Source of the DNA: Shigella phage SHFML-26
Sequence record: KX130862
Length of the DNA stretch: 64,000 bases
Reading direction: 5' to 3' (one strand)
The notes under the pieces: generated by a model
What the model saw: the letters and a program-made list of their open reading frames with translations, nothing else
Database searches by the model: none
What the model was told of the DNA's origin: nothing
Shown here: positions 31,285 through 32,438 of the stretch, piece by piece
Position numbering within the stretch: the stretch's first letter is position 1
Layout of the letters: every line of letters starts with the position of its first letter
Position numbers and translations under genes: made by a program

Positions 31285-31345
31285 CTCCTCAGTAGTTGAT
31301 AGGGTAATAGTATCACTACCCCATCTAAAAGTAAACTTATTTTTT
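31285..31345 (-). promoter_or_regulatory. T4 early-type promoter
   Basis: Plus strand AGTAGTTGATAGGGTAATAGTATCAC...AGTAAAC. Confidence 0.45.
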
Positions 31346-31570
31346 ACGAAAAATTGATTTATTTTCTGCTGCCCATTTTTCAATAACTGCAGCAGGACCA
31401 GTAACAACAATTTTATCACCGTAATCTTCTGCGGCGAGTTGACCGAAATTATCTAATGCATCACGAAGAACTCCATGAGGCATTTCACCCATTTTATCTT
31501 TCTTGCCGGTGTAAATAAACTCAACTTTTGCATCAGAAGATTCAGCGATAAATTCTTTGAAAGTTTTCAT
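31337..31570 (-). CDS. capsid internal protein (IPI-like) with capsid-targeting sequence
   Basis: MKTFKEFIAE N-terminus with I-A-E cleavage motif. Confidence 0.65.
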   Translation of the reverse strand: MKTFKEFIAESSDAKVEFIYTGKKDKMGEMPHGVLRDALDNFGQLAAEDYGDKIVVTGPAAVIEKWAAENKSIFRKK

Positions 31571-31584
31571 TTTAGTTTCCATTC

Positions 31585-31648
31585 GATTGTTTTGTTTTGA
31601 TAGGGTAATAGTATCACAACTAAAACCCTATGTAAACAACTTTGTGAA
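31585..31648 (-). promoter_or_regulatory. T4 early-type promoter
   Basis: Plus strand GTTTTGATAGGGTAATAGTATCAC...TGTAAACAACTTTGTGAAATTATTTTAAATC. Confidence 0.45.
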
Positions 31649-31649
31649 A

Positions 31650-31907
31650 TTATTTTAAATCTTCTAATCGTTTCTTCATCTTAGAACCATTTTTAGCAAT
31701 TTCTCCTGCATCGGAGCATAATGCTAAAAGTGCTTTAACTTTCGTTTGGTCTCCTTTAAAAGATGAAGGATCTACTGCAGCAGCAAGTTCTTTAATACGA
31801 GAGAAAAGACGCTCAGCTTCAGCTAAAGCCATTCCAAGCTTTACTTCCATACCGTGGGAAGATTCAGTGATAGTAGTTTTTGTAGCAAACTCTTTGAAAG
31901 TTTTCAT
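31650..31907 (-). CDS. capsid internal protein (IPI-like) with capsid-targeting sequence
   Basis: MKTFKEFATKTTITE N-terminus with I-T-E cleavage motif. Confidence 0.65.
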   Translation of the reverse strand: MKTFKEFATKTTITESSHGMEVKLGMALAEAERLFSRIKELAAAVDPSSFKGDQTKVKALLALCSDAGEIAKNGSKMKKRLEDLK

Positions 31908-31914
31908 TTTATTT

Positions 31915-31978
31915 TCCTAATTAATTTTGATGAGGTAATAGTATCACTACCTCATCAGCATGTAAACAACTTTGTGAA
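31915..31978 (-). promoter_or_regulatory. T4 early-type promoter
   Basis: Near-identical to motif at 31585-31648. Confidence 0.45.
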
Positions 31979-31979
31979 A

Positions 31980-32438
31980 TTATTTTAAATCATCTGCCCA
32001 ATCGAGTTTAAGAGGCTCTTTGTATTCACGATCTAATACGACCGGAATTTGTACATCACCGCTAAATGATAAGGGCCCAACATTATAAGACAATGTTATA
32101 TGCGGTGTGTAATCATCAAAATCATGTGTAGCACCTAGTGCCCGCGCATACATGTGTCGACAGCGCAGATATTCAGAATCTAGCACAAGTACAAGAGTCG
32201 ATCCATCTTGTGTTTTCCATACTTCTAAATGTCCAGAAGAAGCTACTTCAAAACTTCCGCTTGATGGAACATACGGAACATTTACTCTTGAATAACATAT
32301 GGTCGAATGAATTTTTTCTCTAGGAACTGGATTAGGAACACGTAAAGAGCGCTGGAGTTCTTCCAGCGCATCAAGTGTTAATTCTGAAAACTTAGCTGCT
32401 ACATAAAGACCCGTTGAAAAGTCTTTAAATTCCATCAT
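31980..32438 (-). CDS. 57B: gene 57B product, 2H phosphoesterase (Acb1-like anti-CBASS cyclic-nucleotide phosphodiesterase)
   Basis: 152 aa; two H-x-T/S-x motifs (HSTI, HITL); position downstream of 57A as in T4. Confidence 0.8.

Follow-up and report, generated by a model that had tools for sequence, protein, structure and literature searches.

A stretch of 64,000 nt from Shigella phage SHFML-26 (KX130862), here called the window, contains what is very probably the variable ipI slot of T2/T6-type Tequatrovirus phages, filled by the known internal protein genes ip5 and ip6 beside acb1 (gene 57B), with products that would be packaged in the head and injected with the DNA, Ip6 then acting against McrBC. 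The ip5/ip6/acb1 locus is an already known variable anti-defence site. Its polymorphism around ipI, the conserved leader and the names from Ip4 onward reportedly go back to Repoila et al. 1994 (EMBO J 13:4181), as relayed by later citations and database names. The useful addition is the link, drawn by sequence comparison, between the Ip6 of this window and a reported McrBC inhibitor.

The present analysis established which genes these are, their motifs and promoters, the repeats, the presence of the protease gene and how widely the arrangement occurs; coordinates are those of the whole stretch. The functional interpretation leans on published work, namely capsid targeting and gp21 cleavage of T4 IPIII, the Acb1 activity of T4, and the McrBC sensitivity of a Bas37 knockout.

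The ipI slot and its genes

All genes of the locus lie on the minus strand, and the order of transcription is gene 1 (deoxynucleoside monophosphate kinase), 57A, 57B, a gene for 85 amino acids (aa), a gene for 77 aa, a trna.4-like gene and trna.3. In almost every related locus the trna.4-like gene follows the ip genes. The features of the slot and its flanks are as follows.

32435-32665, minus strand: 57A
31980..32438, minus strand: 57B = acb1 (152 aa); Pfam Acb1, 100% identity to T4 57B, PDB 7T26
31938..31967, minus strand: ip5 early promoter (GTTTACA-N14-TGA-TACTAT), -10 box in a 13-bp stem-loop; hairpin -17.4 kcal/mol, z-score -3.7
31863..31907, minus strand: segment coding for the predicted capsid-targeting sequence (CTS) and propeptide of Ip5 (MKTFKEFATKTTITE), by the CTS and L/I-x-E rules of PMC9026906
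31650..31907, minus strand: ip5 (85 aa); exact match to Q38630_BPT6; phrog_3499
31608..31637, minus strand: ip6 early promoter, -10 box in a stem-loop; hairpin -18.1 kcal/mol, z-score -4.3
31541..31570, minus strand: segment coding for the predicted CTS of Ip6 (MKTFKEFIAE)
31337..31570, minus strand: ip6 (77 aa); phrog_8111; homologs named Ip6; similar to Bas37_0260
31307..31336, minus strand: third promoter/stem-loop copy (repeat family D1), before the trna.4-like gene
31093..31278, minus strand: trna.4-like gene (61 aa, product a small membrane protein), flanking the ip slot and conserved; phrog_1692; annotated as similar to T4 Trna.4 in Sf21

The 85-aa protein has exactly the sequence of the UniProt/UniRef entry 'Ip5' of phage T6, a sequence seen on 205 contigs. 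It is 92-99% identical to the Ip5 entries of T2 and RB70 and 100% identical to bas37_0261 (85 aa) and bas36_0262; it is the same gene as ip5 of T6, T2 and RB70, with no difference to set it apart. Its family, phrog_3499 (1.2e-49), is one of internal head/virion proteins. Searches with the mature part of Ip5 gave 493 phage records, of which 267 reach ≥90% identity; the gene always comes first in the slot, and relatives were detected only in Tequatrovirus and allied T-even phages.

For the 77-aa protein the family is phrog_8111, 'internal virion protein' (1.6e-50), and it shares 71-76% identity with proteins named Ip6 in sequence records. Its mature part matches 229 phage records, many of which label the gene an internal head or virion protein. 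An in-frame ATG at 31582, four codons upstream (METK-MKTF...; 31571-31582, minus strand), extends the 77-aa open reading frame (ORF), and some records annotate 81 aa accordingly. The MKT start is the one annotated in related records, and its ribosome-binding spacing equals that of ip5; the METK start would bury the targeting sequence.

Pfam gave no match for Ip5 or Ip6, the sole hit being a sub-threshold DUF7890, and a sequence search of the PDB found no significant relative for Ip4 (the third CTS-bearing protein of the window, treated below), Ip5 or Ip6. The AlphaFold2 (AF2) model of Ip5 is a helical hairpin with a predicted local distance difference test score (pLDDT) of 72, for which the structural search returned no significant match. 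That of Ip6 has a beta-alpha-beta-beta-alpha-beta fold (pLDDT 86) and can be overlaid on 'Ip6' of phage VR7 at a TM-score of 0.92. The predicted models indicate no mechanism for either protein.

At the other edge of the slot, 57B matches Pfam Acb1 (PF23474) at 2.7e-60 and the Acb1 structure PDB 7T26 at 4.2e-62. A preliminary description of this DNA, made from its letters alone, had noticed two H-x-T/S motifs in the protein and took them as consistent with Acb1. Both points hold: the motifs are H44-S-T46 and H113-I-T115, and the protein is identical throughout to T4 57B, which biochemical work showed to be Acb1, H44/T46/H113/T115 forming its catalytic tetrad (PMC9117128). There is thus no difference from the T4 anti-CBASS 2H phosphodiesterase, the tetrad of the two HxT motifs included. 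Acb1 is synthesised after infection, not injected, and hydrolyses the cyclic-nucleotide signals of CBASS, an antiphage defence that signals through cyclic oligonucleotides. The same description placed 57B immediately downstream of the two small genes; the adjacency is right, and the direction applies only to plus-strand coordinates, as 57B lies upstream of the ip genes in transcription.

The arrangement is common. The locus region is 98-99% identical to many Tequatrovirus (T4-like) genomes, and a 1.7-kb query from it matches 793 phage records, 219 of these with ≥80% query coverage. When 25 kb are compared, the top records belong to T2/T6-type phages, Shigella phage SHFML-11 among them. The ip5-ip6 arrangement occurs in at least 219 phage records, so the content of the locus is not phage-specific, contrary to the preliminary description.

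Capsid targeting and processing

The first ten residues of T4 IPIII are enough for packaging; targeting depends on residues 4 and 7, processing on residues 8 and 10. The prohead protease gp21 cuts after the Glu of an L/I-x-E motif and releases propeptides of 10-19 residues (PMC9026906). A search of both strands of the window for ORFs beginning MK[TS][FY]x[EDQ]F gave just three, ip4, ip5 and ip6. Each has the aromatic residue 4 and Phe 7 of the CTS (MKTFKEF in Ip5 and Ip6, MKTYQEF in Ip4), and each has the gp21 motif at the end of its predicted propeptide. The window also encodes a prohead protease and a scaffolding core, with gene 21, the gp22 scaffold and gp67.

23174..23647, minus strand: ip4 (IpIV), 157 aa, DUF7412; Pfam DUF7412 4.3e-95; phrog_3155 3.2e-101; cluster 'IpIV internal head protein' of T2
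62248..62886, plus strand: gene 21, prohead serine protease; Pfam Peptidase_S77 1.5e-111
62917-63726: gp22 scaffold

Ip5 starts with MKTFKEFATKTTITE, followed by SSHG after the predicted cut, which gives a propeptide of residues 1-15 ending in I-T-E (13-15) and a predicted mature protein of 70 aa with an isoelectric point (pI) of 9.2. Among Ip5 homologs, the length of the propeptide varies (in the homolog P0058, ITE stands at 8-10) and S16 onward is nearly invariant, which supports cleavage after E15. Ip6 starts with MKTFKEFIAE and continues with SSDAK; here the predicted propeptide is residues 1-10, ending in I-A-E (8-10), and the predicted mature protein has 67 aa and a near-neutral pI of 6.5.

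From these features we infer that Ip5 and Ip6 are packaged and cleaved. Each protein would be made from its own early promoter, and probably also by read-through; the N-terminal CTS (MKTFKEF...) would bring it into the scaffolding core of the prohead, where gp21 would cut after the Glu of I-x-E, at E15 in Ip5 and E10 in Ip6. The mature proteins would then remain in the head, to be ejected with the DNA at the next infection and to disarm defences that act on incoming DNA. The preliminary description had already recognised two small genes with their own early promoters, MKTFKEF starts and I-x-E motifs, and the ORFs and promoter patterns bear this out; its view of them as head-targeted, gp21-processed internal proteins beside Acb1 gains support from the PHROG families, the names Ip5, Ip6 and IpIV in the databases, and the gp21 gene in the window.

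Could the shared N-terminus be a mere by-product of a recombination module, with Ip5 and Ip6 being ordinary early cytoplasmic proteins that are never packaged? The DNA repeat of the locus does extend from the promoter into the first 7 codons, and both genes have early promoters with no late promoter of their own. Against this, synonymous codons vary at the conserved CTS residues, and the conservation is therefore at the protein level. The I/L-x-E motif, which lies outside the strongest DNA repeat, is kept as well: among 57 distinct CTS starts from related loci, collected with a search pattern that excluded positions 8 and 10, position 8 is I, L, M or V in 53 and position 10 is E in 50. Ten CTS residues suffice for packaging in T4 (PMC9026906), and the authors of the Bas37 study also take the N-terminus of Bas37_0260 as a packaging signal (bioRxiv 10.1101/2025.11.20.689424). 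A by-product thus seems very improbable to us.

A close known counterpart is T4 IPI, the injected inhibitor of the GmrSD of E. coli CT596, whose gene occupies the same place between 57B and trna.4 as ip5 and ip6. It shares with them MKTFKEF, a near-identical promoter module, an I-T-E site and a small mature protein (67-76 aa). The preliminary description had suggested aligning the small proteins with T4 IPI, IPII and IPIII. The common CTS leader was recovered; mature Ip5 and Ip6 gave nothing, as tblastn with the three T4 proteins against the window matched Ip5 and Ip6 in the CTS only. A single weak alignment, between IPII and Ip4 (33% over 79 aa, E 2e-4), came from the same search.

Candidate targets of Ip5 and Ip6

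A target for Ip6 is suggested by Bas37, which is Escherichia phage KarlGJung (MZ501089), with a locus that runs 57B / bas37_0261 (85 aa) / bas37_0260 (77 aa) / trna.4. Bas37_0260 is like window Ip6 in position, as the second slot gene just before trna.4, and in its 77-aa length; the two are 94% identical over 77 aa, and residues 15-77 are identical. In Bas37, bas37_0260 is one of two genes replacing ipI; transposon mapping found it to be required on E. coli K-12, and its deletion makes the phage specifically sensitive to McrBC, while its product resembles IPI-III only in the N-terminal packaging signal (bioRxiv 10.1101/2025.11.20.689424). Since locus, length and 94% identity agree, window Ip6 is the ortholog of this reported McrBC inhibitor, and McrBC, rather than GmrSD, is its most likely target judged from these comparisons. 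McrBC is a type IV enzyme and cuts DNA whose hydroxymethylcytosine (hmC) lacks glucose; T4 glucosylates all of its hmC, and T2/T6-type phages keep some of it non-glucosylated (PMC13160076). An Ip6 aimed at McrBC would fit T2/T6-type phages because part of their hmC is unglucosylated.

The five substitutions between window Ip6 and Bas37_0260 fall at positions 4 and 5, within the CTS and lost with the propeptide, and at positions 11, 12 and 14, among the first residues of the mature protein. The Ip6 start reads MKTFKEFIAESSDA here (31529-31570, minus strand) and MKTYQEFIAETADV in Bas36, Bas37, Bas39 and Sf21. The allelic differences are limited to the leader and the first four mature residues, the remainder being identical. 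Gene conversion from ip5 was considered as the source of the Ip6 CTS, which has MKTFKEF in place of MKTYQEF, and was rejected: the differences at residues 11-14 are not ip5-derived, and the allele occurs in other phages too. The difference is therefore recorded as allelic variation.

As an alternative, Ip5 and Ip6 might inhibit particular GmrSD-family enzymes that cut glucosylated hmC DNA, in the manner of T4 IPI-III, and this is what the preliminary description implied. Each of the three T4 internal proteins (Ip1, Ip2 and Ip3) inhibits its own GmrSD variant, a type IV enzyme, and these enzymes are highly diverse, with only 15 groups sampled (PMC12373910); moreover, the slot of ip5 and ip6 is the ipI slot itself. 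In the same study, however, none of the eight active GmrSD systems tested was reproducibly inhibited by ip4-10, and T2 and T6, which carry Ip4 and Ip5, were restricted by the GmrSD of ECOR17 and ECOR21 (PMC12373910). These two results leave GmrSD unsupported as a target here and, with the Ip6 ortholog reported to act on McrBC, make the implied target probably wrong; we consider a GmrSD specificity of Ip5 and Ip6 unlikely.

A second alternative is that Ip5 and Ip6 are mainly structural, as basic DNA-associated head fillers that aid assembly or the condensation and ejection of DNA and have no specific anti-defence target. T4 internal proteins are basic and abundant (~300 copies each), and IPIII mutants are slower in head assembly (PMC9026906). 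Mature Ip5 and Ip4 are likewise predicted to be basic (pI 9.2 and 9.1), and the available part of the preprint text gives no phenotype for bas37_0261, that is, Ip5. Mature Ip6, by contrast, is near neutral, and a slot that holds 0-3 genes from 16 unrelated families, with none in some phages, is a poor fit to a required role. The internal proteins of known function are, furthermore, all anti-restriction factors. We find a mainly structural role quite improbable.

For Ip5 we offer a tentative suggestion, plausible to us without being probable: after injection it may inhibit a defence that has so far been linked to no internal protein, neither GmrSD nor McrBC. The suggestion comes from its being identical in >200 phage genomes, always first in the slot, a basic helical hairpin by prediction, and without detected relatives beyond Tequatrovirus and allied T-even phages; the reasoning extends to Ip4. 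Candidate targets may be another sensor of modified DNA, e.g. an hmC or glucosyl-hmC glycosylase, or an enzyme of the Mrr/McrA type.

Several points weigh against the interpretation of ip5 and ip6 as genes for packaged, injected proteins with Ip6 directed at McrBC. (i) The McrBC result comes from a single 2025 preprint on a sister phage, whose text presents no direct binding or mechanism. (ii) The window allele of Ip6 and Bas37_0260 are not the same, three of the first residues of the mature protein being different. (iii) The glucosyltransferase genes lie outside the window, and the rationale of partial glucosylation rests on T2/T6-type phages, not on this phage. (iv) We found no direct evidence in the literature that Ip5 or Ip6 is in virions or cleaved. 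(v) Neither ip5 nor ip6 has a late-promoter motif (TATAAATA) directly upstream, though internal proteins are needed at prohead assembly.

Internal proteins enter with the DNA, before phage gene expression, and so decide the survival of modified T-even DNA under type IV restriction. Matching an internal protein to the enzyme it counters helps to predict the host range of Tequatrovirus phages in therapy cocktails. In practical terms, the two genes, which related records list as 'hypothetical' or as a generic 'internal head protein', can be named ip5 and ip6, with a provisional link of ip6 to McrBC evasion, and Ip5 and Ip4, being widespread and highly conserved, are candidates for screens against defence-system libraries.

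Promoter modules, cassette exchange and Ip4

Each of the two small genes is preceded by a T4-type early promoter, TTTACA-N17-TACTAT with an upstream TG (31966->31938 for ip5 and 31636->31608 for ip6). A strict version of the pattern, GTTTACW-N14-TGN-TAYWAT, has 10 occurrences in the 64-kb window, all on the minus strand, vs 0.01 expected, and three of them are consecutive at the locus. Hairpins of -16 to -18 kcal/mol at 31284-31344, 31585-31645 and 31915-31975 (minus strand) each enclose the -10 box. The stems differ among the three copies (GATGAGGTA, ATAGGGT and GATGGGGTA) with pairing kept, and they are unlike intrinsic terminators because no T-run follows them. The promoter, the ribosome-binding site and the first seven codons of ip5 are nearly identical in DNA sequence to those of T4 ipI; beyond them the genes are unrelated. 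The promoter module is repeated before ip6 and before trna.4 as repeat family D1. The copy before trna.4 is the promoter of the trna.4-like gene, and with it the variable ip slot reaches its conserved right-hand border.

A 32-nt stretch, GATTTAAAATAATTTCACAAAGTTGTTTACAT, occurs at 31634-31665 and at 31964-31995 (minus strand), covering the 3' ends of ip5 (...EDLK-stop) and of 57B (...DDLK-stop) and running into the next -35 box. The last codons of the gene before are thus part of the module that separates ip cassettes. The nearest coding-strand copy of the late motif (TATAAATA) is at 33021-33028 (minus strand), inside gene 1 and upstream of 57A.

The slot was compared across 39 loci: 36 fetched around 57B homologs, together with the window, T4 and Sf21. 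Between 57B and trna.4 these have 0-3 CTS genes per locus, and the 55 genes form 16 families with unrelated mature parts, Ip6 being the commonest with 15 members. Two loci from IMG/VR (L008 and L007) have zero CTS genes between 57B and trna.4, and three others (L013, L015 and L021) carry three consecutive ones. The first ip gene of several phages overlaps the stop codon of 57B and is without its own promoter.

This pattern fits a slot whose content changes between phages by recombination at the repeated promoter/stem-loop/CTS modules, as far as sequence comparison can suggest it. Shuffling by recombination has been proposed for the promoter(early) stem-loop (PeSL) cassettes of T4-type phages (PMC2839356), and the PeSL promoter consensus of T4/PST is TTTACW-N17-TAYWAT (PMC4122927). 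The window shares with PeSL cassettes three tandem consensus promoters with stem-loops flanking small variable ORFs. Unlike typical PeSL elements, these PeSL-like copies have hairpins that embed the -10 box and are followed by no terminator-type T-run.

Ip4 lies away from the slot. Its N-terminus reads MKTYQEFITEAA..., with ITE at 8-10 and IAE at 18-20 as two candidate sites for the protease. The order in this part of the window is ip - denV - e, vs denV - ipII - ipIII - e in T4, so the third ip-like gene does sit across denV relative to T4 order, as first described. Its start lies 10 nt past the stop codon of denV, and it lacks a promoter of its own (23174-23660, minus strand). With this 10-nt gap and the missing promoter, ip4 is probably co-transcribed with denV, from an early-type promoter upstream of denV (~24095-24130).

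Between the two ip regions, within the tRNA gene cluster, lies a GIY-YIG-type ORF of 221 aa (28519-29184, minus strand) at the position of the T4 homing endonuclease segB. It is missing from that position in Sf21 and Bas36, and Bas37 has a homing endonuclease nearby.

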